Virus record (IMG/VR): IMGVR_UViG_2734482540_000003
Origin: a virus
Taxonomy: Duplodnaviria; Heunggongvirae; Uroviricota; Caudoviricetes
DNA length: 17,956 bases
Reading direction: 5' to 3' (one strand)
In this document: piece after piece, positions 1 through 17,956 of the stretch
Numbering within the stretch: the first letter of the stretch is position 1
Layout: each line of letters starts with the position of its first letter
The notes under the pieces: model-generated
What the model saw: the letters and a program-made list of their open reading frames with translations, nothing else
Told to the model about the DNA's origin: nothing
The model's database searches: none
Translations under genes and position numbers: made by a program

Positions 1-1228
1 AGCCGTTATCCGGGTCAATCCAGTTCACCTCAACGGCATTATGGCGGTCTTTCAGGGCGCTGAAACTGTAGCGGAACGGCGCGCCATCATCCGGCATCAC
101 CACATTACTGCGGTTATAGGCCCACACCTTATCCGACTGTCGGTCCTGCACGAACGTCAGCGTCTGCCCGTTCCATACCGGCATACAGCGCATCGCCGAG
201 CAGAAATCACTGAGCACATCCCACGCCTTGCGCTGTGTGGTCAGCCAGGCATTACAGGTGATGCGCGGCTCCGTGCTGCCAAAGCCGTCCGGCACCGACT
301 GGTCACAGTACTGGCCGATGACATACAGCGCCCATTTATCCACATCTGCCGCACCAAGACGTTTCCCCATGCCATAGCGCGGATGGGTCAGCATATCCCA
401 CAGACACCAGGCCATGTTGTTGCTGTATGCCGGTTTTAACGTTCCGTCCCAGATACCGCTGTATTGCCGCGTCTGCGGATTATAGTTCGACGGCACCTGC
501 AGAATGCGCCCGCGAAGATGATAATTACGGCTCACCTGCTGGCTGCCGAACTGCTCCGAATCCACCTGTACGCCGACCAGTGCCGTGTTCGGGTAGCACT
601 GTTTCACATCGATGATTTCGGTGTATGACGACCAGAGCGTTTTGTTCTGCAGCTGGTCTGTGGTGCTGTCCGGCGTCATTCTGCGCATCCGGATATTAAA
701 CGGGCGCGGCGGCAGGTTATCCACCACCACCGAGGCCAGATACTGCGAGGTGGTTTTGCCCTTAATGGTGATGTCTTTTTCCGTCACCCAGCCACCGTTA
801 CGCTGTATCTGAACCAGCAGGCGAACTTCAGACGGATTCCTGTCTCCCTTTGAGGTGGTTTCCACCAGTGCCTGTACACCGAAGGTAAAACGCAGTCGGT
901 CAATGTTTGCCGACGTGATGGTCCGGGTGATCGGCGTGTCATATTTCACTTCCGTACCCAGCACCGTCTCGGAGCCGGAGGATTCAAATCCCTCCGGCGG
1001 TGACTGCTCCTGCTCACCTGCCCGGAACACCACCGTGACGCCGGAGATGTTGGTATTCCCCTCACTGTCCAGCACCGGCGTACTGTTCAGCAGCACGCTT
1101 TTTAATCCATCCACCGGACCTTCAACCGGCCCTTCACTGATGGCATCGATCACACTCAGCAGCTGCGTGGACTTCAGGTTGTCCTTCGCTTCGCGCGGGG
1201 TATGCCCCTTACTGCTGCCTTTACCCAT
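1..1228 (-). CDS. J: Tail tip / host-specificity protein J, N-terminal 409 codons only (gene continues past the left edge of the window)
   Basis: Minus-strand reading from ATG at 1226-1228 gives MGKGSSKGHTPREAKDNLK..., the lambda gpJ N-terminus. The frame stays open to position 1. It is absent from the ORF track because no stop codon lies in the window. GGAG Shine-Dalgarno about 9 nt upstream. Follows I in lambda gene order. Confidence 0.9.
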   Translation of the reverse strand, partial: MGKGSSKGHTPREAKDNLKSTQLLSVIDAISEGPVEGPVDGLKSVLLNSTPVLDSEGNTNISGVTVVFRAGEQEQSPPEGFESSGSETVLGTEVKYDTPITRTITSANIDRLRFTFGVQALVETTSKGDRNPSEVRLLVQIQRNGGWVTEKDITIKGKTTSQYLASVVVDNLPPRPFNIRMRRMTPDSTTDQLQNKTLWSSYTEIIDVKQCYPNTALVGVQVDSEQFGSQQVSRNYHLRGRILQVPSNYNPQTRQYSGIWDGTLKPAYSNNMAWCLWDMLTHPRYGMGKRLGAADVDKWALYVIGQYCDQSVPDGFGSTEPRITCNAWLTTQRKAWDVLSDFCSAMRCMPVWNGQTLTFVQDRQSDKVWAYNRSNVVMPDDGAPFRYSFSALKDRHNAVEVNWIDPDNG

Positions 1229-1288
1229 TCGTCATGCTCCATAAACGATAAAACCGCCCGGAGGCGATTTCACATAAAACATTTTGCA

Positions 1289-1960
1289 TCAGCGACCAAT
1301 CACCACAACCTGACCACCGTCCCCTTCGTCTGCCGTGCTGATCTCCTGAGATACCACACGTGACCCCACGCGCATTTCACCATACAGAACAGGCATAACA
1401 TTGCCCTGGGCAACCATGTTATCCAGTGAGGAGAAATAGGTGTTCTGCTTACCGTTATCCGTTGTCTGTGTGCGGGGAGTTCTGGCTTTCGGTGCCAGCA
1501 TCTGAGCCACACCGCCGAGCACCATACTGGCACCGAGAGAAAACAGAATGCCGGTCATACCACCGGCACCAATGGCAGCCCCCCATGCTGCAAGGGTGGC
1601 TCCGGCGGTAAAGAATGATCCGGCAATGGCGGCTGCTCCCAGGACAATCTGGAATACACCACCTGACTTGGCCCCGGCGACTCTGGGAACAATATGAATC
1701 ACAGCGCCGTCAGGCAGAGCCTCATGTAACTGTGCCGTTAATCCGGACGTGCTAACATCCTGCCCGGCAATACGCACCTGATACCAGCCGTCGCTCAGCT
1801 TCTGACGAAACGCAGGGAGCTGTGTGGCCATCGCCCGGATGGCTTCGGCACCCGTTTTCACACGAAGGTCGATGCGGCGGCCAAATCGTTGCAAATCCCC
1901 GTAAAGGCAGATGCGTGCCATGCCCGGTGACGCCAGAGGGAGTGTGTGCGTCGCTGCCAT
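1289..1960 (-). CDS. I: Tail assembly protein I
   Basis: 223-aa ORF (MAATHTLPLASPGMARICLYGDLQRFGRRIDLRVKTGAEAIRA...) matches lambda gpI over its full length. Overlaps the 3' end of K by about 100 nt in another frame, as in lambda. Confidence 0.93.
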   Translation of the reverse strand: MAATHTLPLASPGMARICLYGDLQRFGRRIDLRVKTGAEAIRAMATQLPAFRQKLSDGWYQVRIAGQDVSTSGLTAQLHEALPDGAVIHIVPRVAGAKSGGVFQIVLGAAAIAGSFFTAGATLAAWGAAIGAGGMTGILFSLGASMVLGGVAQMLAPKARTPRTQTTDNGKQNTYFSSLDNMVAQGNVMPVLYGEMRVGSRVVSQEISTADEGDGGQVVVIGR

Positions 1961-2457
1961 TTGTCGGTATACCTCTCTCGTTTGCTCAGTTGTTCAGGAA
2001 TATGGTGCAGCAGCTCGCCGTCACCACAGTAAATGGCGGCATGATTCGGCACCGATGAACCAAAACAGCACAGCAGCACATCGCCCGGCTGCGCCGCTGA
2101 CAACGGCACCTGATACAGCCCTGTGGCCTCCAGATTATCCAGATAGAGATTCTGACCGTGACGCCACCAGTCATCCTCACGATGAAAATCCGGCATCTCA
2201 ATCCCCGCCAGATGGTAAGCATCCCGGAACAGCGTGTAACAGTCCGTCACCCCGTGCTCAAAGCGCCGCCCGGTAAGATGTGGCACACAGCGGAACTTGT
2301 GAATCGCCCCCCGGCAGACCAGCCACCACGGCAAATCACTCTGCACCTGCAGCCGCCGGTCGGCCTCACTCAGCCAGGGCAGACCACCGGGGTGGCTGTG
2401 GACCAGTGCCACAATCTCACCCTGCATCTCTGCCTGCAGCCAGTCTTCCGGCGACAT
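1858..2457 (-). CDS. K: Tail tip assembly protein K (JAB/MPN-type metallopeptidase motif plus NlpC/P60-like Cys/His region)
   Basis: Last 199 codons of track ORF 1858..2895 (MSPEDWLQAEMQGEIVALVHSHPGGLPWLSEADRRLQ...HIPEQLSKRERYTDKWQ...) correspond to lambda gpK. ATG at 2455-2457 with GGAGG about 11 nt upstream. JAMM-like E..HxH..S..D motif is visible. The frame remains open upstream to the N-run (see findings). Confidence 0.88.
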   Translation of the reverse strand: MSPEDWLQAEMQGEIVALVHSHPGGLPWLSEADRRLQVQSDLPWWLVCRGAIHKFRCVPHLTGRRFEHGVTDCYTLFRDAYHLAGIEMPDFHREDDWWRHGQNLYLDNLEATGLYQVPLSAAQPGDVLLCCFGSSVPNHAAIYCGDGELLHHIPEQLSKRERYTDKWQRRTHSLWRHRAWHASAFTGICNDLAAASTFV

Positions 2458-2789
2458 ACGGAAATACGCCTCCGGCTCACCGGAGATATTCACGCAGGGG
2501 AAATATCTTTCCCCCTCCGGCGTTCTTACCACGAAGCCGNNNNNNNNNNNNNNNNNNNNNNNNNNNNNNNNNNNNNNNNNNNNNNNNNNNNNNNNNNNNN
2601 NNNNNNNNNNNNNNNNNNNNNNNNNNNNNNNNNNNNNNNNNNNNNNNNNNNNNNNNNNNNNNNNNNNNNNNNNNNNNNNNNNNNNNNNNNNNNNNNNNNN
2701 NNNNNNNNNNNNNNNNNNNNNNNNNNNNNNNNNNNNNNNNNNNNNNNNNNNNNNNNNNNNNNNNNNNNNNNNNNNNNNNNNNNNNNNNN

Positions 2790-3311
2790 GGTGCAGGTGT
2801 TGGCCAGCATGATACGTCCCGGAAAAACAGCGCCATCTGTTTCCGTCGGCGTGGACAGTACAAAAGAGGCACTCACCGCGCTCAGTTCGCTGCACTGCTC
2901 AATGCGCCAGCGGCTGATCACCTCCTGCTCCGGATCGGCGTCACTGTTTCCGTTGACGAAGTTCACCGCATCCAGAAAACGGGCGTAAACCTTACGCCGG
3001 ACCACCGTTCCGCCGACCAGACTCTGTAGATCTTCCGCCATCCCGGTGACCATACCGTACAGGTTAGAAACCATCAGCGTGGGGCGCGTACTGGTGCCTT
3101 TGCCATTCAGTTCAAAACCACTCCCCTGAATGGGATACGGCTGATACTGTCGCCCCTGCCAGGTGACCGGCTCACCTTTTTCGTTCTGCTCATTACAGAA
3201 AAAATAACGTTCTCCACCGACCTCTGTCAGATCGATTTCCCAGAGCACCACGCTGGCCGACTGCTCCGCACGGGTGCATTCATTCAGTGTTTCCTGCCGG
3301 ATATCCTGCAT
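2790..3311 (-). CDS. L: Tail tip protein L (visible N-terminal about 174 codons; 3' end lies in the N-masked stretch)
   Basis: Translation from ATG at 3311 (MQDIRQETLNECTRAEQSASVVLWEIDLTEVGGERYFFCNEQNEKGEPVTWQGRQYQPYPIQGSGFELNGKG...) matches lambda gpL. Lambda L is 232 aa, so the stop is expected near 2613 inside the N-run (extrapolated, not observed). Start overlaps the M stop by 1 nt. Confidence 0.9.
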
Positions 3312-3640
3312 CAGTTCACCACCTGTTCAAACTCTGCGCTGAACTCAACACGCAGCATACTGACCCGCGACGACCATTTTGCGCAGGTCACCTTTATCTG
3401 CCGCCACTCATAAGGCGGCGTCCACAGAAAGGCTTTCCAGCCCCCGTGCTCTTCCAGAAACGACTCCAGTACCATGGCCTCCTCACGGGGGACAGAAAGC
3501 GTCACGCTGTACGTTTTCAGGTTGGCATTCAGCCCGGCAGGCGCTCGCTGGGAATAGCCATCACCAAAGCGCACCTTTCTTACAGAAGGGGCCGAAGCCA
3601 CATCCATACCGGGTTTCACTTTCCAGCGGAAGGTTTTCAT
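3311..3640 (-). CDS. M: Tail tip assembly protein M
   Basis: 109-aa ORF (MKTFRWKVKPGMDVASAPSVRKVRFGDGYSQRAPAGLNANLKTYSVTLSVPREEAMVLESFLEEHGGWKAFLW...) matches lambda gpM. ATGA-type overlap with the H stop. Confidence 0.93.
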   Translation of the reverse strand: MKTFRWKVKPGMDVASAPSVRKVRFGDGYSQRAPAGLNANLKTYSVTLSVPREEAMVLESFLEEHGGWKAFLWTPPYEWRQIKVTCAKWSSRVSMLRVEFSAEFEQVVN

Positions 3641-6198
3641 CGTCCACCTCCGGAGAACAGGCCACCATCACGCATCTGTGTCTGAATTTCATCACGGGCA
3701 CCCTTGCGGGCCATGTCATACACGGCCTTCATCATCTGTGGACCTGGCAGACCATTCGTACCGTCGTTCTGAATCACCACGTGATTGTTCTGATTAAAAT
3801 TAATGCCTTCAGCCCGCCGCATCTGCGCCGGACTTCCGGCACCGCCCACATAACCACCTTCCGCATAGCCGCGCATCAGCCGGTAGAGATTCCCCACGCC
3901 AATCCGGCTGGTTGCCTCCTTCGTGAAGACAAATTCACCACGGTGAACAATCCCCGCTGGCTCATATTTGCCGCCGGTTCCCGTAAATCCCCCGGTTGCA
4001 AAATGGAATTTCACCGCAGCGGCCTGAATGGCTGTACCACCTGACGCGGATGCGCCGCCACCAACAGCCCCGCCAATGGCGCTGCCGATACTCCCGACAA
4101 TCCCCACCATTGCCTGCTTAAGCAGAATTTCTGTCATCATGGACAGCACGGAGCGGGTGAAGCTGCGCCAGTTCTGTTCACTGCCGGTCAGCATCGCCGC
4201 CATATTCTGTGCAATACCATCAAAGGTCTGCGTGGCTGCACTTTTAACCTGTGACATACTGTCCGTGGCGCTCTCTTCCCACTCACTCCAGCCGGACTTC
4301 AGGCCTGCCATCCAGCTCCCGCGAAGCTGGTCTTCAGCCGCCCAGGTCTTTTTCTGCTCTGACATGACGTTATTCAGCGCCAGAGGATTATCGCCATACT
4401 GTTCCTTCAGGCGCTGTTCCGTGGCTTCCCGCGCTGCCTGCCGGTCAGTCAGCCCCCGGTTTTTCGCATCAATGGCTGCCCGTTTTGCCCGTTGCTGCTG
4501 TGCGAATTTATCCGCCTGCTGCGCCAGCGCATTCAGGTGCTCCTGATACGTAACCTTGTCACCAAGTGCAGCCAGCTGGCGTTTGTACTCCAGCGTCTCG
4601 TCTTTATGCGCCAGCAGGGATTTCTCCTGTGCGGACAGCTGGCGACGTTGTGCCGCCTCCTCCAGTACCGCGAACTGACTTTCTGCCTTCCACAAATCCC
4701 GGCGCTGCTGGCTGATTTTCTCATTCGCTCCGGCATGCTTCTCCAGCGTCCGGAGTTCTGCCTGAAGCGTCAGCAGGGCCGCATGAGCACTGTCTTCCTG
4801 ACGATCGCCCGCATACACCTTCACGCCGGACTGTTTCGGCTTTTTCAGCGTCGCTTCATAATCCTTTTTCGCCGCCGCCATCAGCGTGTTGTAATCTGCC
4901 TGCAGGATTTTTCCGTCTTTCAGTGCCTTGTTCAGTTCTTCCTGACGGGCGGTATATTTCTCCAGCGGCGTCTGCAGCCGTTCGTAAGCCTTCTGCGCCT
5001 CTTCGGTATATTTCAGCCGTGACGCTTCGGTATCGCTCTGCTGCTGCGCATTTTTGTCCTGTTGACGCTGTTGATCTACCCTCTTTTGGGCTGCATCCCG
5101 CTCCAGGCGTTTTTTTTCACGATCATCCCAGTAACGCGCCCGTGCTTCATCGTTAACGAAATAATCATCCTTGCGCAGATTCCAGATGTCGTCTGCTTTC
5201 TTAAACGCAGCCTCTGCCTTAATCAGCATCTCCTGCGCGGTATCAGGACGACCAATATCCAGCACCGCATCCCACATGGATTTGAATGCACGTGCAGTCC
5301 TGTCTGCCCAGGTCTCCAGCGTGCCCATGTTCTCTTTCAGGCGGCGGGTCTGGTCATCAAACCCTTTCGTTGCGGCCTCGTTCGCCGCCTGCAATGCCCC
5401 GGCTTCATCGCCGGAACGCTGCAACTGAGCAACATACGCAATCTGCTCCGCCGTCACGTTATGGAACTGGCGTGCCATCGCCGTCAGCCCCGACGTCGGG
5501 TCTGTGGTCAGCTTCCCGAAGGCTTCAGCGACCTTGTCCACCTCCACGCCGGATGCATAGGAGAAACGCGCCACACTCTGGCTGATGGACGCAATCTGAG
5601 CCTCACCGCTTACCCCCGCCTTAACCAGTGCGCTGAGTGACTCGCTGGTCTGGTTAAACGTCAGCCCTGCCGCCTGCCCGGCTCTGGACAGGACCAGCAT
5701 ACGATCTGCCGTCAGTCCCGCCTGATTACCGGAAAGGACCAGCGTTTTGTTGAAATCGGACAGGGTTGAGTTGCCCTGATACCAGGCATACGCCAGCGCA
5801 CCGGTCGCCACCGCCAGCGAGGTGGCCCCCACCATCGGCAGGGTGATCGCGCCGGCAAGCCCCCTGAACATGGGGATCATCCCGCCGAAGGAGTCCTTAA
5901 CCTGACCACCCTGTTGCAGCAGGATCAGCCAGGGATTCTGCCCCCCTGCAAGCTGCGTGGCCACGTCGGTGAACTGTGCAGGCAGCATACGCATGGCGGC
6001 TTTATACTGCCCGACGGAAATCCCCGCTTTCTGTGCAGCCAGCGCCTGTCGGCTCAGCGACTGTTCAACGACTGCCGCTGTTTTTTTCGCATCACTTTCC
6101 GTACCGGAAAAATGACGCCTGACTCTGGCCATCTGCTCGTCAAATCTGGCCGCATCCAGACTCAAATCAACGACCAGATCGCCTACCGGTTCAGCCAT
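3637..6198 (-). CDS. H: Tail tape measure protein H
   Basis: 853-aa ORF (MAEPVGDLVVDLSLDAARFDEQMARVRRHFSGTESDAKKTAAVVEQSL...RDGGLFSGGGR), same length as lambda gpH and recognisable throughout. Coiled-coil-rich middle and glycine-rich C-terminal region. Start overlaps the end of the T frame by 8 nt. Confidence 0.95.
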   Translation of the reverse strand: MAEPVGDLVVDLSLDAARFDEQMARVRRHFSGTESDAKKTAAVVEQSLSRQALAAQKAGISVGQYKAAMRMLPAQFTDVATQLAGGQNPWLILLQQGGQVKDSFGGMIPMFRGLAGAITLPMVGATSLAVATGALAYAWYQGNSTLSDFNKTLVLSGNQAGLTADRMLVLSRAGQAAGLTFNQTSESLSALVKAGVSGEAQIASISQSVARFSYASGVEVDKVAEAFGKLTTDPTSGLTAMARQFHNVTAEQIAYVAQLQRSGDEAGALQAANEAATKGFDDQTRRLKENMGTLETWADRTARAFKSMWDAVLDIGRPDTAQEMLIKAEAAFKKADDIWNLRKDDYFVNDEARARYWDDREKKRLERDAAQKRVDQQRQQDKNAQQQSDTEASRLKYTEEAQKAYERLQTPLEKYTARQEELNKALKDGKILQADYNTLMAAAKKDYEATLKKPKQSGVKVYAGDRQEDSAHAALLTLQAELRTLEKHAGANEKISQQRRDLWKAESQFAVLEEAAQRRQLSAQEKSLLAHKDETLEYKRQLAALGDKVTYQEHLNALAQQADKFAQQQRAKRAAIDAKNRGLTDRQAAREATEQRLKEQYGDNPLALNNVMSEQKKTWAAEDQLRGSWMAGLKSGWSEWEESATDSMSQVKSAATQTFDGIAQNMAAMLTGSEQNWRSFTRSVLSMMTEILLKQAMVGIVGSIGSAIGGAVGGGASASGGTAIQAAAVKFHFATGGFTGTGGKYEPAGIVHRGEFVFTKEATSRIGVGNLYRLMRGYAEGGYVGGAGSPAQMRRAEGINFNQNNHVVIQNDGTNGLPGPQMMKAVYDMARKGARDEIQTQMRDGGLFSGGGR

Positions 6199-7029
6199 AC
6201 CGGACTCCTCCTGCGATCCCTTCTGATACTGTCATCAGCATTACGTCATCCTCCGTCATGTCCGCCACATCCGGGGAAGCGGGGATAACTTCATTCCCGT
6301 CCGGGCCAAAGCGGACACCTCCGGCAAGCCCTGCCGCTTTCTGCATCAGCACATCATCTTCAGGCTCTTCGTCAGCCTCGCGCCGGTTCAGCAGACTGAA
6401 ATCCAGCGGATGCATCTCCGGATCGCTGAAAAACAGGCTGAGCACGGTGTACGTCAGCCCGGAAAAGTGCATATCCAGCAGAACATCATGAAAATAATGG
6501 GTACTGTAAAAGCGGTGCCAGTCGGCATACTCCGTGGATGACATCCCGGCAAGCATGGCGCGCCAGTCGGGTCGCCCCATCTCACGCGCCAGTTTCAGGG
6601 CAAAACTCAGCTCACCGTCGAACACTTTCCCGCAGAAACAGGCTCTGCAGGCCCGGCGTCCTCTGCCTGTTCAGGAGCATCATTCACCACAAACTCATAC
6701 ATACCGGACAGCCGGTACACCACGTTTTCAGCATGAGAAATTGCCTCTGTGGGCCAGGTGGTAAGCACTTCCTGCTCAATCTGTTTAACGGCTTCATTCA
6801 TGGACGGCATCTGCGTCTTCTTCGGATGGTTATGCCACAGGGACATCGCAACCACAAAAGCGCCGGTTCTGATGGCGTCTTCCACAGTAAACTTCCGGTT
6901 GCTGTCTGACTCCGCCTGTTCTGCCTGCCGTTTCATCAGGTCGAGATGCTCAATACGCTGCAGGGCTGACAGTTCAGAAAGCGTGACGGTCACACCGTTA
7001 TGTTCAAATGATTCGGTTTTCAGGAACAT
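6191..7029 (-). CDS. T: Tail assembly chaperone G-T fusion, made by programmed -1 ribosomal frameshift from G into the T frame
   Basis: The -1 frame downstream of the G slippery site is open from about 6625 to the stop at 6191 (...FDGELSFALKLAREMGRPDWRAMLAGMSSTEYADWHRFYS...), matching the T part of lambda gpGT. It has no start codon of its own (the first in-frame codon reads GTG), consistent with expression only by frameshifting. Confidence 0.85.
6607..7029 (-). CDS. G: Tail assembly chaperone G
   Basis: 140-aa ORF (MFLKTESFEHNGVTVTLSELSALQRIEHLDLMKRQAEQAESDSNRKFTVEDAIRTGAFVVAMSLWHNHPKK...) matches lambda gpG. Contains the slippery heptamer near its 3' end. Confidence 0.93.
   Translation of the reverse strand: MFLKTESFEHNGVTVTLSELSALQRIEHLDLMKRQAEQAESDSNRKFTVEDAIRTGAFVVAMSLWHNHPKKTQMPSMNEAVKQIEQEVLTTWPTEAISHAENVVYRLSGMYEFVVNDAPEQAEDAGPAEPVSAGKCSTVS
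6625..6631 (-). other. Slippery heptamer G GGA AAG for the G to G-T -1 programmed frameshift
   Basis: Plus strand reads CTTTCCC, i.e. GGGAAAG on the minus strand, positioned as G GGA AAG in the G frame (…A G K C S T V S*). Shifting -1 here reads GGG AAA GTG TTC... = GKVFDGELS, which joins the T frame exactly. Confidence 0.85.
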
Positions 7030-7044
7030 CGCTGACTCTCCGGA

Positions 7045-7785
7045 TTAACTGGCGGTGACGTTGATTTCTGCAACCGCAGCAAACTCACCATTACCAGATA
7101 CGACCGGAATGTTGACCTTGCCTGCAGCAACACCTTTCACGGTGATGGTCATACCACTGACCGACACGGTGGCTTTTGTTTTATCCGCAGACACCGCACG
7201 GAAGCTCTTGTCGGTTGCGCCATCCGGCTGGAATGCCACGGTCAGCGTGGTGCTCTGCCCTTTCACTACGGAAGCACTGGCGGGTGTCACCGTCATGCCG
7301 GTCGTCGCCGTCACCGTGCTGCGATCTTCTGCCATCGACGGACGTCCCACATTGGTGACCTTCACCGTGCGGGTAATCACCTCCTTCGCCGTCACCGCCT
7401 TACCGATACTGCTGACCCAGCCACGGAACACATCGACCGTGCCGTTCGGGAAGCGGATTTTATAGGCACGGGTATCACCTTCATTAAACCACGCCAGCAG
7501 CGCCTGCTGCCCCTGCTCTCCGGGCATCCACGCCAGCGTGAAGCTGGTATCTCCGGCAGATTTCTGCCCCTGCCCGGTCGCAGTCCAGTCTGCATCTTCA
7601 TCATCGAGATAGCTGTCGTCATAGGACTCAGCGGTCAGTTCGCCGGGCGTCAGGTCTTTAACTTTTGCCAGACGCGACCAGTCAACGTCTGAAAGCGGGT
7701 TCGCATAAGGGTCACCGCTCCCCTTATAAACCCACAGGGTGGTCCCGGCACCTTTCACCGGCATTGTAGGATTTGGTACAGGCAT
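7045..7785 (-). CDS. V: Major tail tube protein V (with C-terminal Ig-like domain)
   Basis: Track ORF 7045..7815 contains the lambda gpV sequence starting at its 11th codon ([45 protein letters not shown]...EINVTAS). That gives a 246-aa product from ATG at 7785, 7 nt downstream of the U stop as in lambda. Confidence 0.93.
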
Positions 7786-7792
7786 AGCGTCC

Positions 7793-8034
7793 TCACATTT
7801 CATAGATAATGACATAAGTCAGATCGGCTGAACTCCACAGGCCCGCATCATCGTCGCGCCGGTAGTCATAGCCGCTGGCCACCATACTGGTGATCAAATC
7901 TGACAGTGCCGGGATATCGCTCATCACAGGATAAATCCGGGACTCCATCCACGAATCCAGCTCTGAATCCGGCACCTGAGCAGGCAGGAAAACTTCAATA
8001 TGCAGCTCCGCCTGCCAGGTATCGCTGTCCAGCT
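7793..8034 (-). CDS. U: Tail tube terminator protein U (visible C-terminal about 80 codons; start lies in the N-masked stretch)
   Basis: In-frame translation from the N-run edge to the stop at 7793 reads ...[79 protein letters not shown], the C-terminal two-thirds of lambda gpU (131 aa). The track ORF begins at an internal GTG only because of the mask. Extrapolated start is near 8188. Confidence 0.9.
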
Positions 8035-8298
8035 NNNNNNNNNNNNNNNNNNNNNNNNNNNNNNNNNNNNNNNNNNNNNNNNNNNNNNNNNNNNNNNNNN
8101 NNNNNNNNNNNNNNNNNNNNNNNNNNNNNNNNNNNNNNNNNNNNNNNNNNNNNNNNNNNNNNNNNNNNNNNNNNNNNNNNNNNNNNNNNNNNNNNNNNNN
8201 NNNNNNNNNNNNNNNNNNNNNNNNNNNNNNNNNNNNNNNNNNNNNNNNNNNNNNNNNNNNNNNNNNNNNNNNNNNNNNNNNNNNNNNNNNNNNNNNNN

Positions 8299-8783
8299 AA
8301 CGCCGTGGTCAGCGGCACCGCCATCGGGATTTTCACCACATCAATGGGGTAACGGTTTTTCCCGGCCACACGCTGCATAACATGCCACCGGCCGTTTTTC
8401 AGTTGCTGAATAAACGCGCCGGGAATACGACGGTTACCCACCACAAGCACGCTGCCGCCACCTTTCAGGGATGAACGCTGCCCCTTTTTATGACGCCTGC
8501 GGCGGGACAGGACAACCCGCGCATTACCCAGCTTGATTACGGGCAAATCCCCCCGGTTAACTTTGATTCTGGCCTGCGGATTTTTGACCGTGGCCCTTTT
8601 CAGCCTGGCCCTTTCCTTTACCAGTTTCCGGCGTACCTTTGTCTCACGGGCAACCTGTGACGCAGACTGCGATATCGCGGATGAAGCAACGCGGTTAATG
8701 GCCATTGCGGCGGCACCGGGCACCGCCGTTTTGCTGATACGGCTGAGGTTTTCAACGGCCTGCTCAAGACCTTTTATGGCCAT
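8299..8783 (-). CDS. Z: Tail completion protein Z (visible N-terminal 161 codons; 3' end lies in the N-masked stretch)
   Basis: Track translation MAIKGLEQAVENLSRISKTAVPGAAAMAINRVASSAISQSASQVARETKVRRKLVKERARLKRATVKNPQARIKVNRGDLPVIKLGNARVV... matches lambda gpZ (192 aa). Expected stop is near 8205 inside the N-run (extrapolated). Confidence 0.9.
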
Positions 8784-8794
8784 ACATCCCCCTT

Positions 8795-9148
8795 TCAGCG
8801 GCGACGGTTAACGGCAGGCGGTACGCCCCGTCCAAGCCAGAGATGACAACTTCCGCCATCATCCGGCGAAACCCGATCTACCCAGAAATTTTCCTCACCG
8901 ATGGTCAGCGTGTCTCCACGCCGCAGCTGCCGCACCTCATCAGTCCGGACAAACAGGGACGGGCTGGAGCCTTCAACGCGCACGCCCTGTCCGGCATAGC
9001 TGATATTTTCAGGGTCATCAAAAACACCACGTATCACCGCACCTGACTGCTCACCGGATGTCATGGTGGCTGACGTTCCCATGTACCCGCGTATCGTTTC
9101 ATCGGCGCGGGCAATGGCAGCATCGAACAGGTTATCGAAATCAGCCAC
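8795..9148 (-). CDS. FII: Head-tail joining protein FII
   Basis: 117-aa ORF (MADFDNLFDAAIARADETIRGYMGTSATMTSGEQSGAVIRGVFDDPENISYAGQGVRVEGSSPSLFVRTDEVRQLRRGDTL...) matches lambda gpFII. By my reading the initiator is GTG, preceded by GGGAGG. Lies 11 nt after the FI stop. Confidence 0.93.
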   Translation of the reverse strand: MADFDNLFDAAIARADETIRGYMGTSATMTSGEQSGAVIRGVFDDPENISYAGQGVRVEGSSPSLFVRTDEVRQLRRGDTLTIGEENFWVDRVSPDDGGSCHLWLGRGVPPAVNRRR

Positions 9149-9159
9149 AGCGCCTCCCG

Positions 9160-9498
9160 TTATTGCATTCTGGCCAGGCCGCGCTCTGTCATTTCGGCTG
9201 CCACACCGGCAGAGACACGAAACGCCGTTCCCGGCAGCACAAATGCCACAGGTTTATCCCGCGTGGCGTGAAGTGCATCAGTATGCAGCGTCACCAGTGC
9301 CACGACCGTGACCAGTTCAGCCGTATCCTGAATCACGGTATCCGGCTGCGCTGATACCACCTCATTTTCATGCCCGGTCAGCACATTTTCCCGGCTGAGA
9401 GGGGTGTCCTGACCGGCAGTTTCATCCGTGTCATCAAGCTCTTCTTCCAGCTCTGCCACACGAAGCGCCAGTTCTTCTTTCGTTCCCGTCAAACTGAC
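9160..9498 (-). CDS. FI: DNA-packaging protein FI (visible C-terminal 112 codons; start lies in the N-masked stretch)
   Basis: Visible translation VSLTGTKEELALRVAELEEELDDTDETAGQDTPLSRENVLTGHENEVVSAQPDTVIQDTAELVTVVALVTLHTDALHATRDKPVAFVLPGTAFRVSAGVAAEMTERGLARMQ is the C-terminal part of lambda gpFI (132 aa). Extrapolated start is near 9558. The 510-aa track ORF is an artefact of E and FI being read in one frame across the N-run. Confidence 0.88.
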   Translation of the reverse strand, partial: VSLTGTKEELALRVAELEEELDDTDETAGQDTPLSRENVLTGHENEVVSAQPDTVIQDTAELVTVVALVTLHTDALHATRDKPVAFVLPGTAFRVSAGVAAEMTERGLARMQ

Positions 9499-9786
9499 NN
9501 NNNNNNNNNNNNNNNNNNNNNNNNNNNNNNNNNNNNNNNNNNNNNNNNNNNNNNNNNNNNNNNNNNNNNNNNNNNNNNNNNNNNNNNNNNNNNNNNNNNN
9601 NNNNNNNNNNNNNNNNNNNNNNNNNNNNNNNNNNNNNNNNNNNNNNNNNNNNNNNNNNNNNNNNNNNNNNNNNNNNNNNNNNNNNNNNNNNNNNNNNNNN
9701 NNNNNNNNNNNNNNNNNNNNNNNNNNNNNNNNNNNNNNNNNNNNNNNNNNNNNNNNNNNNNNNNNNNNNNNNNNNNNNNNNNNNNN

Positions 9787-10665
9787 TGCGTCCGCATCCT
9801 GAATGCAGCCATAGGTGCGCAGACCGCGAGCCTGAGTGTTCCCCAGCACCATCGTGTTGTCCGGCAGGAAGTTCTTTTTGACGCCGTTTTCCACGTACTG
9901 TCCGGAATACACGACGATGGCCACATCGCCATACATTCCCTTATAGGACACCGCTTTGCCCAGGTCTTTTACCGCTGTCTCCAGCTCGGAATGAGAGCCG
10001 CGACGGGTATCCAGCTTCTCCTTGACGGCTTTGAAGGAACGGAACAGCGCCCAGCCTTTCGGGTCAAACACGATGATATTCACCACACCGCTGGCGTTCA
10101 GCGCGTAGGCTTCGATATCGTCGGTCGGGTCATACGTGGACTTGTCACGCTTGCTCCACTCCGTGACGCCGGACTGTGTGATGTTGTTCGCCGCACTGCG
10201 GCCCATATCCACCTCAACCGGATCGAAGGCTTCACCGGTCATGGTGTATTTGCCCTTGAGCACGGCAGAAACTGCCTGCATCTCTTCGACCTGAGCAATG
10301 GCCAGCTCTTCGTCACGCATGTTCTGCATGATGATGCGACGGCGGCGGTAAGCCGGGTCCGCCAGATTCTGCGGATCTTCATCCGGCAGGCGACGCAGGG
10401 TCATCTGCGGATTCACCTCATGCTTGGGTTTGACATATCCCGGCGTAAATTCAGAGGTGGAGCCGCCACGGGAACGGATAACCTCACCGGAAACAATCGG
10501 CGAAACGTACAGCGCCATGTTTACCAGTCCCGGAATTTGTGAGAGATAGACTTTCTCCGTAGTGAAGGGATAGCTCTCACGGAAAAAGAGACGCAGAAAC
10601 AGCGGATCAAACTTAAATTTCTGCTCATTTGCCGCCAGCAGCTGGGCGGTTGTGTACATCGACAT
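9787..10665 (-). CDS. E: Major capsid protein E (visible N-terminal 293 codons; 3' end lies in the N-masked stretch)
   Basis: From ATG at 10663-10665: MSMYTTAQLLAANEQKFKFDPLFLRLFFRESYPFTTEKVYLSQIPGLVNMALYVSPIVSGEVIRSRGGSTSEFTPGYVKPKHEVNPQ..., matching lambda gpE (341 aa). Expected stop is near 9640 inside the N-run. The track's upstream extension to 10692 is not the real start. Confidence 0.93.
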
Positions 10666-10720
10666 AAAAAAATCCCGTAAAAAAAGCCACACAGGCGGCC
10701 TTTAGTGATGAAGGGTAAAG

Positions 10721-11053
10721 TTAAACGATGCTGATTGCCGTTCCGGCAAACACGGTCCGTTTTTTCGTCTCGTCGCTGGCAGCCTCCGGCCAGAGCACAT
10801 CCTCATAACGGAACGTGCCGGACTTGTAGAACGTCAGTGTGGTGCTGGTCTGGTCAGCAGCAACCGCAAGAATGCCAACGGCAGCACCGTCGGTGGTGCC
10901 ATCCCACGCAACCAGCTTACGGGTGGAGGTGTCCAGCATCAGCGGGGTCATTGCAGGCGCTTTCGCACTCAATCCGCCGGGCGCGGTTGCGGTATGAGCC
11001 GGGTCACTATTGCCCAGCGGCTGGTAATGGGTAAAGGTTTCTTTGCTCGTCAT
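10721..11053 (-). CDS. D: Capsid decoration protein D
   Basis: Track ORF 10721..11059; lambda gpD (110 aa, [43 protein letters not shown]...AGTAISIV) begins at the second ATG (11053). A 55-nt spacer separates it from E, as in lambda. Confidence 0.93.
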
Positions 11054-11062
11054 AAACATCCC

Positions 11063-11668
11063 TTACACTGGTGTGTTCAGCAAATCGTTAACGGCATCAG
11101 ATGCCGGGTTACCTGCAGCCAGCGGTGCCGGTGCCCCCTGCATCAGACGATCCAGCGCAGTGTCACTGCGCGTCTGTGCACTCTGTGGTGCTGCGGCCAG
11201 AATACGGCGGGCCGTTTCCACGGTCATACCGGGGGTTTCGGCCAGCACGCGTGCCTGTTCTTCGCGTCCGTGAGCCTCCTCACAGTTGAGGATCCCCATA
11301 ATGCGACTGTTTTCTGCCGCAACCGCTGCGGTGATCTGCGCGTTCACGTCCGGCTGCGCCGCGCTGGCGTTCTCGCCCTCCGTCGCTTGCACCACGCCAG
11401 TAACGTCAGCCTGCGAAGCAGTGGCTGAAACAGTTGTTGATTGAGTCTCTTTGGTCATTCGCCCTCCTGAGAGACGGGATTTACGTGCATCCAGTGCATC
11501 ACGCATGACGGTGATCGCATCGGTACTGTTAACAAGTTCATCAGCCAGTCCGGCATCAATGGCCTCCTGACCGCTGTACACTGCAGCCTCGGTATCCAGC
11601 ACAGCCTGCACGGACAGGCCGGTATATGCCGACACCTTCTGTGCAAACATCCGGCGGGTTGCATCCAT
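11063..11668 (-). CDS. nu3: Capsid scaffolding protein Nu3 (internal in-frame initiation within C; shares the C-terminal 201 codons of C)
   Basis: In-frame ATG at 11666-11668 begins MDATRRMFAQKVSAYTGLSVQ..., the position of lambda nu3 within C. No strong Shine-Dalgarno, so the call rests on the known lambda arrangement. Confidence 0.72.
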   Translation of the reverse strand: MDATRRMFAQKVSAYTGLSVQAVLDTEAAVYSGQEAIDAGLADELVNSTDAITVMRDALDARKSRLSGGRMTKETQSTTVSATASQADVTGVVQATEGENASAAQPDVNAQITAAVAAENSRIMGILNCEEAHGREEQARVLAETPGMTVETARRILAAAPQSAQTRSDTALDRLMQGAPAPLAAGNPASDAVNDLLNTPV

Positions 11669-12362
11669 CCGGGACTGCAATGTTTCCCGGACATCATCCG
11701 GTAGATGGCTGTAGGGGTTGCCATCCACCTTATGGCTGCCGCTGTAAATCAGCGTGATTTCCACGCCCTGTTTCTCCAGTGCAGCGCCGTAATTACTGTG
11801 AGCCATCATGACGCCGATGGAGCCTGTCCGGGCGGTCTGCGTGACCAGACGCCGGGAGGCGGCACTGGCAAGCAGCTGACCTGCGCTGCAGTTCATGTCA
11901 TTGGCCAGCGCCCATACCGGCTTTATGTCACGCACACGGGCGATGATGTCAGCGCAGTCAAATGCTCCCGCCACCATTCCGCCCGGTGTGTCCATATCGA
12001 GCAGAATGCCGTCCACCATCGGGTCGCTGGCAGCCTGTTGCAGACGGGCGATAATGCCGTTGTAACCGGTCATCCCCGAGTACGGCTGCAGCGCCCGCGT
12101 CCGGCTGACCAGCGTGCCGGACACCGGCAGCACGGCGATGCCGTTCATTACCTGATAACTGCGGGCCTGTCGTGGTCCGTCATCATCACCGGATAACGCC
12201 AGCGCCGCGGGTGCCTCTCCGGCAGTCAGGCTGTCGCCGGATACTGCATCCGTCAGGCAGCTGATCCCAAGCTGGCCTGCAAGCGCACAAAAGAAAACCC
12301 GCGCATAGGCGGGTTCAAGCATCAGCGGCTCATTAAAAGCCATGCTGGCAATATGCGGGAGA

Positions 12363-12382
<20 letters not shown>
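11063..12382 (-). CDS. C: Capsid assembly protease C (ClpP/S49-like serine protease), 439 aa
   Basis: Track ORF 11063..12517 contains the lambda gpC sequence from residue 46 onward (V/M-TAELRNLPHIASMAFNEPLMLEPAYARVFFCALAGQLGIS...LLNTPV). The initiator at 12380-12382 reads GTG. Overlaps the B stop by about 20 nt. The longer 484-aa frame is not accepted. Confidence 0.9.
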
Positions 12383-16063
<3,681 letters not shown>

Positions 16064-16089
<26 letters not shown>

Positions 16090-16609
16090 TCAGCAACCCC
16101 GGTATCAGTTCATCCAGCGCGGCTGCTTTGTTCATGGCTTTGATGATATCCCGTTTCAGGAAATCAACATGTCGGTTTTCCAGTTCCGGAAAACGCCGCT
16201 GCACCGACAGGGGGATCCCGTCGAGAATACTGGCAATTTCACCTGCGATCCGCGACAGCACGAAAGTACAGAATGCGGTTTCCACCACTTCAGCGGAGTC
16301 TCTGGCATTTTTCAGCTCCTGTGCGTCGGCCTGCGCACGCGTAAGTCGATGGCGTTCGTACTCAATAGTCCCTGGCTGGAGATCTGTCTCGCTGGCCTGC
16401 CGCAGTTCTTCAACTTCCCGGCGCAGCTTTTCGTTCTCAATTTCAGCATCCCTTTCGGCATACCATCTTATAACGGCGGCAGAGTCATAAAGCACCTCAT
16501 TACCCTTGCCACCGCCTCGCAGAACGGGCATTCCCTGTTCCTGCCAGTTCTGAATGGTACGGATACTCGCACCGAAAATGTCAGCCAGCTGCTTTTTGTT
16601 GACTTCCAT
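16064..16609 (-). CDS. nu1: Terminase small subunit Nu1
   Basis: 181-aa ORF MEVNKKQLADIFGASIRTIQNWQEQGMPVLRGGGKGNEVLYDSAAVIRWYAERDAEIENEKLRREVEELRQ... matches lambda gpNu1. ATG at 16607-16609, directly downstream of the cosB-like repeats. Confidence 0.95.
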
Positions 16610-16629
16610 TGTTCATTCCACGGACAAAA

Positions 16630-16750
16630 ACAGAGAAAGGAAACGACAGAGGCCAAAAAGCCCGTTTTCAGCACCTGTCGTTTCCTTTCTTTTCAGGGGG
16701 TGTTTTAAATAAAAACATTAGGTTACGGCGAAGAAGAACGGAAACGCCTT
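16630..16750. promoter_or_regulatory. cosB-like terminase-binding region (R1, R2, R3 repeats flanking an AT-rich IHF-site-like segment)
   Basis: Seen directly: agagaaaggaaacgacag (about 16633-16650) and its near-perfect inverted copy ctgtcgtttcctttct (about 16676-16691), plus a third related copy gaagaagaacggaaacg (about 16729-16745), with an AT-rich tract (ttttaaataaaaacatta) between. This layout matches the R1-R2-I1-R3 organisation of lambda cosB just upstream of Nu1. Confidence 0.65.
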
Positions 16751-16780
16751 AAACCGGAAAATTGTCATAAATAGCGAAAA

Positions 16781-16805
16781 CCCGCGCGCCTTCCGCCCCG
16801 TAACC
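16781..16805. promoter_or_regulatory. cosN-like region (terminase nicking site) with a non-canonical core
   Basis: Flanking sequence (gcgaaaacccgcg ... cgtaacctgtcgg) is what surrounds lambda cosN, but the 12 nt between read CGCCTTCCGCCC rather than the reverse complement of the lambda cohesive end (AGGTCGCCGCCC). Position relative to cosB and Nu1 is as expected. Confidence 0.5.
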
Positions 16806-16834
16806 TGTCGGATCGCCGGAAAGGACCCGCAAAA

Positions 16835-16849
16835 TGATAATAATTATCA
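16835..16849. promoter_or_regulatory. Perfect 7-1-7 inverted repeat TGATAATAATTATCA (Fur-box-like), in the region where cosQ maps
   Basis: Read directly from the sequence; matches the TGATAATnATTATCA Fur-box consensus. Lies about 40 nt from the cosN-like core and about 150 nt upstream of the YlcI-like ORF. Confidence 0.4.
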
Positions 16850-16997
16850 TCTACATGTCACAACGTGCATCTACGCCATCAAACCACGTCAAATAATCAA
16901 TTATGACGCAGGTATCGTATTAATTGATCTGCATCAACTTAACGTAAAAACAACTTCAGACAATACAAATCAGCGACACTGAATACAGGGCAACCTC

Positions 16998-17231
16998 ATG
17001 TCAACGAAGAACAGAACCCGCAGAACAACAACCCGCAACATCCGCTTTCCTAACCAAATGATTGAACAAATTAACATCGCTCTTGTTCAAAAAGGGTCCG
17101 GGAATTTCTCAGCCTGGGTCATTGAAGCCTGCCGCCGGAGACTGTGCTCAGAAAAAAGAGTTTCGCCTGAAGCAAACAAAGAAAAGAGTGACATTACTGA
17201 ATTGCTCAGAAAACAGGTTAGACCAGATTGA
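16998..17231 (+). CDS. Small basic protein, YlcI/DUF3950-like (homolog of the unnamed small ORF next to cos in lambda); function unknown
   Basis: 77-aa ORF MSTKNRTRRTTTRNIRFPNQMIEQINIALVQKGSGNFSAWVIEACRRRL... The N-terminal 50 or so residues match the small lambda right-end ORF and the DLP12 YlcI family as I recall them; the C-terminal tail differs. Basic N-terminus and a ribbon-helix-helix-like core suggest nucleic-acid binding. Weak Shine-Dalgarno. Confidence 0.6.
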   Translation: MSTKNRTRRTTTRNIRFPNQMIEQINIALVQKGSGNFSAWVIEACRRRLCSEKRVSPEANKEKSDITELLRKQVRPD

Positions 17232-17288
17232 AGCAATTTAGATAATCGTGCAGACTACGCCCCCTCATATCACATGGAAGGTACTACA

Positions 17289-17699
17289 ATGGCTCAGGTT
17301 GCCATTTTTAAACAAATATTCGATAAAGTGCGAAATAATTTAAACTATCACTGGTTTTATTCTGAACTAAAACGTCACAATGTCTCACATTACATTTACT
17401 ATTTAGCCACAGAGAATATTCATCTTGTTCTTGAAAACGATAATACGGTTTTAATAAAAGGACAGGGTAAGGTTGTAAATGTAAGATTTTCAAAAAATAA
17501 ATGCCTTATAGAAGCCACCTTAAAAGGATTCAAATCAGGAGAGTTATCATTTTACGAATACAGGAAAAATCTTGCTACAGCAGGGGTTTTCAGATGGATT
17601 ACAAATATCCACGAAAACAAAAGGTATTACTATACCTTTGATAATTCATTACTCTTTACTGAGAACATACAGAACACTACACAAATATTTCCGCACTAA
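17289..17699 (+). CDS. DUF1398-family protein, YbcV-like (homolog of the lambda right-end ORF lambdap78); function unknown
   Basis: Track ORF 17274..17699. The likely start is the second ATG at 17289 ([67 protein letters not shown]...[35 protein letters not shown]), preceded by GGAAGG at a 7-nt spacing. AT-rich codon usage unlike the structural genes. Resembles YbcV/lambdap78 at roughly 75-80% identity by recollection. Confidence 0.75.
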
Positions 17700-17707
17700 A
17701 TCATAAC

Positions 17708-17736
17708 GTCCGGTTTCTTCCGTGCCAGAACCGGAC
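17708..17736 (+). other. 8-bp perfect inverted repeat (GTCCGGTT ... AACCGGAC) with a 13-nt loop just downstream of the YbcV-like stop; possible transcript 3' stem-loop
   Basis: Read directly. No U-tract follows, so it is not a classical intrinsic terminator. Confidence 0.3.
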
Positions 17737-17956
17737 TCGCTGGCATGATGAAATATGTGTACCCGGTAACCCCGGTGTGCATCGTTTTTGATTATTCCCG
17801 CACACTCGCGCAGAAGGAGTTCCCCGTCGGGCTACGGTCTCTGTTAATACGGGAATACGGCGACGATTGGATTTGCCCCTATATTTCCAGACATCTGTTA
17901 TCACTTAACCCATTACAAGCCCGCTGCCGCAGATATTCCCGTGGCGAGCGATAACC

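Follow-up and report, generated by a model that had tools for sequence, protein, structure and literature searches.

The AT-rich gene pair beside cos of a lambda-like prophage has the widespread Qin-type form of an exchangeable mosaic cassette

Results

Organization of the region beside cos

The window, that is the whole stretch of 17,956 nt analysed here (IMG/VR record IMGVR_UViG_2734482540_000003), corresponds to the late region of a lambda-like prophage, with the late genes on the minus strand. Beyond the terminase genes and the cohesive-end position, two small genes of the DUF3950 (YlcI/YnfO) and DUF1398 (YdfO/YbcV) families lie on the plus strand, facing away from the late operon, and are followed by a spacer and by the terminal part of an insertion sequence (Table 1). 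The position of cosN was fixed by alignment to the lambda termini, lambda 48502 aligning with window position 16799 and lambda position 13 with 16786.

The initial annotation of this DNA had recognized both ORFs, their families and their orientation away from the late operon, and had described them as more AT-rich than the structural genes; all of this was borne out. The GC content is 0.368 over 16998-17699 against 0.571 over 1-16609, where the lowest N-free 702-nt window still reaches 0.526, indicating that the pair, like a moron, has a base composition unlike that of its flanking genes. The same annotation had called the structural genes near-identical to lambda. They are very similar, with 95.6-98.3% identity wherever sequence is present, but not near-identical. 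Three AT-rich islands within the structural genes were discarded as N runs, masked sequence with no biology behind it. The runs lie at 2540-2789 (250 nt, L/K), 8035-8298 (264 nt, Z/U) and 9499-9786 (288 nt, E/FI), and they create false low-GC dips as well as false long 'fused' ORFs, such as that at 9160-10692 (510 aa).

Downstream of the pair, the window ceases to match lambda or any phage record at 17867/17868. The last part of the window shares 92.8% identity with one end of a transposase element of E. coli LR-71-1 annotated as IS3-family, and we take it to resemble the IS2 terminus. The insertion sequence interrupts the prophage between the DUF1398 gene and the next gene, which in relatives is bor or KilA-N. 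The similar element of LR-71-1 sits about 460 nt further along.

Table 1 Features of the window at and around the gene pair
Feature	Position	Strand	Basis
Terminase A	14164-16089	-	ORF list
Nu1	16064-16609	-	ORF list
cosN cohesive-end position	16788-16799		Alignment to lambda termini
DUF3950 (YlcI/YnfO family) gene (ORF1), 77 aa, YnfO-type long C-terminal tail	16998-17231	+	ORF, Pfam, NCBIfam
54-nt allele-specific segment, ORF1 codons 55-72	17161-17214	+	blastn breakpoints versus lambda
PdhR-box-like palindrome AACAGGTTAGACCAGAT	17212-17228	+	Single match in window
Predicted sigma-70 promoter TAGACC-16 nt-GATAAT	17219-17246	+	Consensus scan, 9/12 matches
DUF1398 (YdfO/YbcV family) gene (ORF2), 136 aa	17289-17699	+	Pfam, PDB 2HH8, start motif
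Spacer downstream of the DUF1398 gene	17700-17868	+	Homologous to lambda 47041-46875
IS3-family insertion sequence, terminal part	17860-17956		Similarity to E. coli LR-71-1 element

The DUF3950 gene

The product of ORF1 matches the Pfam DUF3950 profile (PF13132) with 72.8 bits (cut-off 25, E = 2e-20) and the NCBIfam profile YlcI_YnfO_N (NF041551) with 35.2 bits (cut-off 30). It is identical to YnfO of the K-12 prophage Qin at 75 of 77 positions, and to the YlcI proteins of lambda and DLP12 at 52 of 64. The C-terminal tail differs from that of lambda, as had been noticed from the sequence: it reads CSEKRVSPEANKEKSDITELLRKQVRPD in the window and TSEKRAYTSIKSDEE in lambda, and the switch falls exactly at the alignment breakpoint. 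The core motif of the family, IRF(P)...NFSxWVxxAC, is present in ORF1 and invariant in the family alignment; across the 54 aligned sequences from Enterobacterales, residues I15, R16, F17, F37, S38, W40, A44 and C45 do not vary, and the tails after residue ~50 are variable.

The family is a small one: a search of 1.84 billion sequences returned 114 representatives at E <= 0.001, and the named members all come from Enterobacterales. DUF3950 genes also occur without DUF1398, in phages with HNH, Terminase_2 or TerL_ATPase packaging genes (DUF1398 being absent at the loci with HNH and Terminase_2 genes), and there they occupy the same slot as in the window, between lysis and packaging genes and on the opposite strand. 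Distant homologues are found in int-alpA-primase islands, and the family has been reported in Enterobacter cf-PICIs (PMC13612085).

Two side observations concern these relatives. In the int-alpA-primase islands, the distant DUF3950 homologue is overlapped by an opposite-strand ORF of 315-430 aa that has no Pfam match; in the K. pneumoniae ATCC 13883 island, the overlapping ORFs lie at 4634-5608 (minus) and 5001-5174 (plus). Separately, a 129-aa protein carries a DUF3950 domain followed by a match to the N terminus of Terminase_2 (small terminase, E = 1.7e-6). This protein could be either a genuine fusion or an artefact of gene calling; it fits the constant position of the family beside packaging genes.

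The possibility that DUF3950 is a ribbon-helix-helix protein was approached by phmmer and profile searches against PDB and Pfam, by hhalign, by AlphaFold2 and by Foldseek, and none of them gave a significant similarity of ORF1 to a ribbon-helix-helix family. The best ribbon-helix-helix match among PDB profiles is CdbA (E = 0.69), one of 23 diverse DUF3950 members matches Pfam RHH_6 (E = 0.092), and hhalign, run against Arc, Mnt, CopG, NikR and others, gives probabilities of 4-7% for NikR and Arc. AlphaFold2 reached a pLDDT of 55 with one sequence and of 71 with 54 sequences, the latter model consisting of an extended arm and helices 19-32, 37-54 and 57-72. Foldseek searches of PDB and BFVD with this model returned no match below E = 1 and no ribbon-helix-helix protein on top, a weak test for a monomer model of an obligate dimer. 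The fold assignment thus remains a guess, as does, at low confidence, our suggestion that DUF3950 proteins are small DNA-binding regulators.

The DUF1398 gene

The open frame of ORF2 runs from an ATG at 17274 and encodes 141 aa. Its true start is likely the ATG at 17289, since a GGAAGG motif precedes it by 7 nt and the RefSeq ydfO and ybcV products are both 136 aa long. The 42-nt gap given for the gene pair in the initial annotation is correct as the distance from the ORF1 stop to the ATG at 17274, but becomes 57 nt with the likely start. ORF1 and the ATG at 17274 share a frame, in which one TGA is the only stop that separates them (17229-17273). A DUF3950-DUF1398 fusion or read-through product was considered and rejected: the 233-aa 'fusions' in databases carry W at the TGA, which reflects gene calling with an alternative code, and the spacer measures 56-59 nt in relatives, so that the frame relation is not conserved.

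The ORF2 product covers the whole Pfam DUF1398 profile (PF07166, positions 1-119 of 119) with 147 bits (cut-off 22, E = 3.3e-43), matches the YdfO structure (PDB 2HH8, residues 1-140) with E = 1.4e-69, and shares 102-105 of 136 residues (~75%) with YdfO, YbcV and lambdap78. Overall dN/dS values of 0.18-0.35 point to purifying selection, more relaxed in the central third of the gene, where the window allele gives 0.34-0.62. Conservation by purifying selection applies to both ORFs, and their K-12 homologues are transcribed (PMC7660256, PMC4077768). Lack of conservation or of expression, which would have spoken against the initial annotation, was therefore not what we found, and its statement that both proteins are of unknown function still holds. 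No support was found for the labels 'head protein' and 'envelope protein' attached to DUF1398 (PHROG 413, RefSeq), which we treat as propagated annotation.

RefSeq lists lambdap78 (lambda 47042..47575) as a 177-aa 'head protein' or 'putative envelope protein'. The start given there lies 41 codons ahead of that of the conserved DUF1398 protein, which has 136 aa.

Identity between the window and Qin is 95-100% over ynfO and the spacer and falls to 63-87% inside the DUF1398 gene. The product shares 102 of 136 residues with YdfO, the divergence being greatest in codons 55-100, and the window DUF1398 gene represents a third allele or lineage. The allele recurs unchanged in E. albertii and in an additional Escherichia species, where other terminases lie next to it. 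There is mosaicism at more than one point of the region. DUF1398 is also found alone as ycgX, beside bluR (PMC3509220). We venture, with low confidence, that DUF1398 is a host-regulated lysogenic-conversion protein.

The junction with lambda

The initial annotation had proposed a mosaic junction or moron indel beside cos, to be abandoned if the segment proved collinear with lambda. It is not collinear. In blastn alignments, a left arm (window 16799-17160, lambda 48502-48141, 95% identity) and a right arm (window 17215-17868, lambda 47527-46875, 83%) enclose 54 nt in the window and 613 nt (47528-48140) in lambda, a net difference of 559 nt. The 613 nt of lambda hold the last ten codons of its 64-aa YlcI homologue together with lambdap79/ybcW on the late-operon strand. 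No ybcW/lambdap79 homologue (PHROG 657) was detected by tblastn over the whole window, the best hit having E = 3.7. The absence of the cassette, together with a DUF3950 tail that changes precisely at the breakpoint, supports a mosaic junction. The spacing of about 0.7 kb given for the two homologues in lambda was close, the measured distance in lambda and DLP12 being about 0.64-0.66 kb, and the small opposite-strand ORF placed between them does exist. As for the absence of a lambda moron, lambdap79 is indeed missing, but it is not a classic self-contained moron since its orientation is that of the late operon.

The 64-aa YlcI homologue of lambda (complement 48109..48303) carries no annotation in NC_001416.

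The 54-nt segment shows no homology to the lambda cassette, its ends included, beyond that of shuffled controls. Because the segment resembles the lambda cassette no more than chance allows, the difference is a replacement rather than a clean deletion. An attempt to read the direction of the event, insertion or deletion, from homology between the 54 nt and the ends of the lambda cassette stayed within the same controls, and no direction was assigned.

A PdhR-box-like site at the right breakpoint

The right homology arm begins at a palindrome resembling a PdhR box, which occurs once in the window, where chance alone would give 0.03 matches. The palindrome overlaps the last codons of ORF1 (...QVRPD, then stop), and homology to lambda resumes at AGGTTAGACCAGATTGA, which comprises the end of ORF1 and the palindrome. 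The homologous site of Qin reads AAcaGGTcagACCAgaT, and the window site differs from the K-12 sites by one base in the spacer. In K-12, the homologous Qin and DLP12 sites are among 35 PdhR genomic SELEX peaks, and in a pdhR mutant the mRNA levels of ybcV and ybcW are lowered 10-fold and 8.9-fold, respectively (PMC7660256).

The -35 element of the predicted sigma-70 promoter overlaps the PdhR-like box. This promoter is the only promoter-like site on the plus strand of 16600-17956; the scan shows no enrichment over shuffled sequences (4 found, 3.2 expected). The consensus scan found no promoter-like site upstream of ORF1, and no plus-strand intrinsic terminator was found after ORF2. In K-12, ydfO is induced 116-fold (qPCR) after ionic-liquid shock, and a separate ydfO promoter has been used as a reporter (PMC4077768); ydfO and ybcV are regulated there independently of any phage cycle (PMC7660256, PMC4077768). 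By analogy with these homologues, we infer that the DUF1398 gene probably forms a separate, host-regulated transcription unit and that the cassette ends shortly before its control region. The reported protection against oxidative stress by YdfO overexpression (PMC4077768) was left unused, the main text of the cited source (PMC3105296) containing no ydfO.

Distribution of the Qin-type allele

The window aligns with Qin ynfO-ydfO collinearly and in one piece, at 89.6% identity over 1139 nt, whereas its alignments to DLP12 and lambda are interrupted. The two breakpoints between lambda and the window recur between lambda and Qin, whose arms include runs of perfect identity of 336 nt and 44 nt. Both forms are found in E. 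coli K-12, in Qin and DLP12.

A 76-nt probe detected the YnfO-type junction in 2174 of 5426 complete E. coli genomes and in 8 phage records. The 613-nt ybcW cassette is present in 1362 of the 5426 genomes at a coverage of at least 80% (1947 with any match) and in 40 phage records, which are mostly lambda and its laboratory derivatives. Among the best 80 IMG/VR loci with this N-terminal domain, a sample biased to close relatives of the query, all 80 encode the 77-aa form with DUF1398 56-59 nt downstream. We conclude that the window shows the widespread Qin-type form, which is no rarer than that of lambda. The ybcW cassette is present or absent at the same position depending on the relative, a variability characteristic of morons.

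The K-12 Qin pair (b4533/b1549) agrees with the window in gene order, in orientation relative to nohA/cos, in the 57-nt spacer, in the 77-aa YnfO with the same tail and in the PdhR-box sequence at the 3' end of ynfO. The two differ in their DUF1398 genes, as described above, and in setting: unlike in the decayed Qin, the window pair lies beside full-length lambda-like head and tail genes, albeit with an insertion sequence 170 nt downstream. The ylcI-ybcW-ybcV region of DLP12 and the right end of lambda share with the window the position beside cos, DUF3950 codons 1-54 at 95% DNA identity, and a homologous DUF1398 gene with its upstream palindrome. By contrast, they have 613 nt in place of 54, a DUF3950 protein of 64 aa with another tail, and ybcW/lambdap79 (68 aa) on the late-operon strand. 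The lambda morons bor and lom resemble the window pair in being AT-rich relative to the late genes, variably present among relatives and dispensable for plaque formation (lambdap78 scores as non-essential by CRISPRi). Unlike them, the window pair has no known surface or virulence function and no detected terminator. The feature is hence already known and annotated, as an exchangeable mosaic cassette.

Discussion

We consider it highly probable, taken as a whole, that the window carries the Qin-type (ynfO-ydfO) allele of an accessory segment that lambdoid phages exchange. In this reading, the segment occupies the interval from the lysis genes to cos, is encoded on the strand opposite to the late operon, and circulates in E. 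coli as two alleles with common left and right arms. The left arm consists of cos and DUF3950 codons 1-54 (95-98% identical), and the right arm of the promoter/PdhR-box region and the DUF1398 gene (about 83% identical). The middle is either the 54 nt that complete the 77-aa YnfO, or the 613 nt that end DUF3950 at 64 aa and add ybcW/lambdap79. Homologous recombination in the arms between co-resident lambdoid phages or prophages would swap the alleles; this step is drawn here from the alignments, and a preprint reports it from experiments with lambda-vir and Qin. Expression of both genes probably relies on promoters of the host type and does not depend on late transcription. For the DUF1398 gene a dedicated promoter that overlaps a PdhR operator is likely, and this arrangement, if the window behaves as K-12 does, would couple the gene to host pyruvate sensing.

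A different emphasis, which we regard as doubtful, would make the DUF3950 gene the fixed element. It would be positionally constant in enterobacterial cos phages and their satellites and encode a small DNA-binding protein, with codon ~54, the end of the conserved domain, as a recombination boundary. Irrespective of the type of terminase, the gene would always be found immediately upstream of the packaging genes and oriented against the late operon, and its product may act on late read-through, on packaging or on neighbouring cargo. Cargo such as ybcW would be gained or lost behind codon ~54, under selection by defence systems that sense the cargo.

The notion that the two genes work together, in the manner of a toxin-antitoxin system in which a ribbon-helix-helix DUF3950 antitoxin or repressor neutralizes or regulates the DUF1398 protein through its tail, is quite improbable. 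The genes are adjacent and co-oriented across a 57-nt spacer, an arrangement conserved at all of the best 80 IMG/VR loci; the DUF3950 pattern (basic arm, IRFP, helix, G-x-NFS, helix) resembles ribbon-helix-helix proteins, the weak matches to CdbA, NikR and Arc are in register, and the ORF1 tail is predicted to be helical. However, in lambda and DLP12 the two genes are separated by an opposite-strand gene and the tail is replaced. DUF3950 occurs without DUF1398 elsewhere, and DUF1398 stands alone as ycgX, which argues against the obligate adjacent pair that defines type II toxin-antitoxin systems. The reading frames are not coupled, with gaps of 56-59 nt, neither protein matches a PADLOC defence model, and Foldseek offered no ribbon-helix-helix match (all E > 1).

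Still less can be said for a simple private deletion, in which a lambda-type ancestor would have lost ~0.6 kb beside cos, ybcW included. It would account for the net difference of 559 nt and for the absence of lambdap79, but the site holds 54 nt that have no lambda counterpart and encode a conserved tail, in a protein 75/77 identical to Qin YnfO, and the same junction recurs in 2174 genomes. Such a conserved tail and so widespread a junction argue for an old alternative allele. It is just as hard to credit that the two ORFs are functionless remains of a prophage in decay, as the nearby IS3-family end (~17860-17956, 170 nt downstream) and the cryptic prophages that house the K-12 homologues might suggest, given that both ORFs are intact, that dN/dS is 0.18-0.35, that near-identical copies exist in E. 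coli phages deposited as complete (PhiR49_1, Kati, Chlobot, ev099 and PhiR70_1) and that the identical DUF1398 allele recurs beside different terminases in E. albertii and another Escherichia species.

The exchange of a Qin-type for a lambda-type segment acquires a possible consequence from a September 2026 preprint (10.64898/2026.09.04.749371). It describes Vulcan as a NIR-domain NADase acting by abortive infection. According to the preprint, lambdap79 had been lost from each of seven lambda-vir escapers, 'likely through recombination with Qin', co-expression of lambdap79 and Vulcan is toxic, and other phages trigger Vulcan, and are blocked by it, without lambdap79. As described there, the escapers resemble the window in having lost lambdap79 and gained Qin-type sequence, the window allele. 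They arose as recombinants in the laboratory, under selection by Vulcan; the window, by contrast, represents a natural prophage. Judging from the lambda-Qin alignment, the escaper breakpoints would be the same as those of the window. The laboratory event yields the window allele. The window phage naturally lacks the reported Vulcan trigger lambdap79, and we predict that it should not trigger Vulcan via this gene.

A CRISPRi screen scored lambdap78 as non-essential and lambdap79 as essential, while earlier literature lists lambdap79 as non-essential (PMC10695390). In our reading, the essential score stems from polarity on the late transcript.

The right end of lambda is only one of two common alleles, and the Qin-type allele is without lambdap79, the one gene reported so far to trigger Vulcan. 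Natural phages with the Qin-type allele are predicted to evade lambdap79-based sensing, and prophage-to-phage recombination in this short segment may offer a ready escape route. The loss of a defence trigger is the most interesting aspect of the locus, and has already been described in the preprint (10.64898/2026.09.04.749371). DUF3950, restricted to Enterobacterales, and DUF1398, whose structure has been solved since 2006, are very widespread phage genes without an assigned function, and one of the two appears to be wired to the host pyruvate regulator PdhR. Current understanding is left unchallenged, and the importance of the locus is modest.

Additional observations

Lambda right-end sequence turned up in unrelated assemblies (Streptomyces, Cohnella, Pedobacter, Pseudomonas, MAGs and others) on contigs of 3.5 kb or ~48.5 kb, and many ENA contigs of about 3.5 kb likewise match it. 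Such contigs in unrelated assemblies very likely represent contamination by lambda control DNA or spike-in, and many odd YlcI/YbcV database variants with frameshifted tails probably stem from error-rich reads of the lambda control.

The cosN 12-mer of the window is a variant, GGGCGGAAGGCG on the minus strand as opposed to the canonical GGGCGGCGACCT of lambda (CGCCTTCCGCCC and AGGTCGCCGCCC, respectively, on the plus strand), despite Nu1 and A being about 98-99% lambda-like. Among the IMG/VR loci compared, the variant occurs in 6 and the canonical 12-mer in 71, and only ~85 of 3471 records from complete E. coli genomes match the variant cosN region at 95% identity or more. The cosN of the window is thus a minority natural allele.
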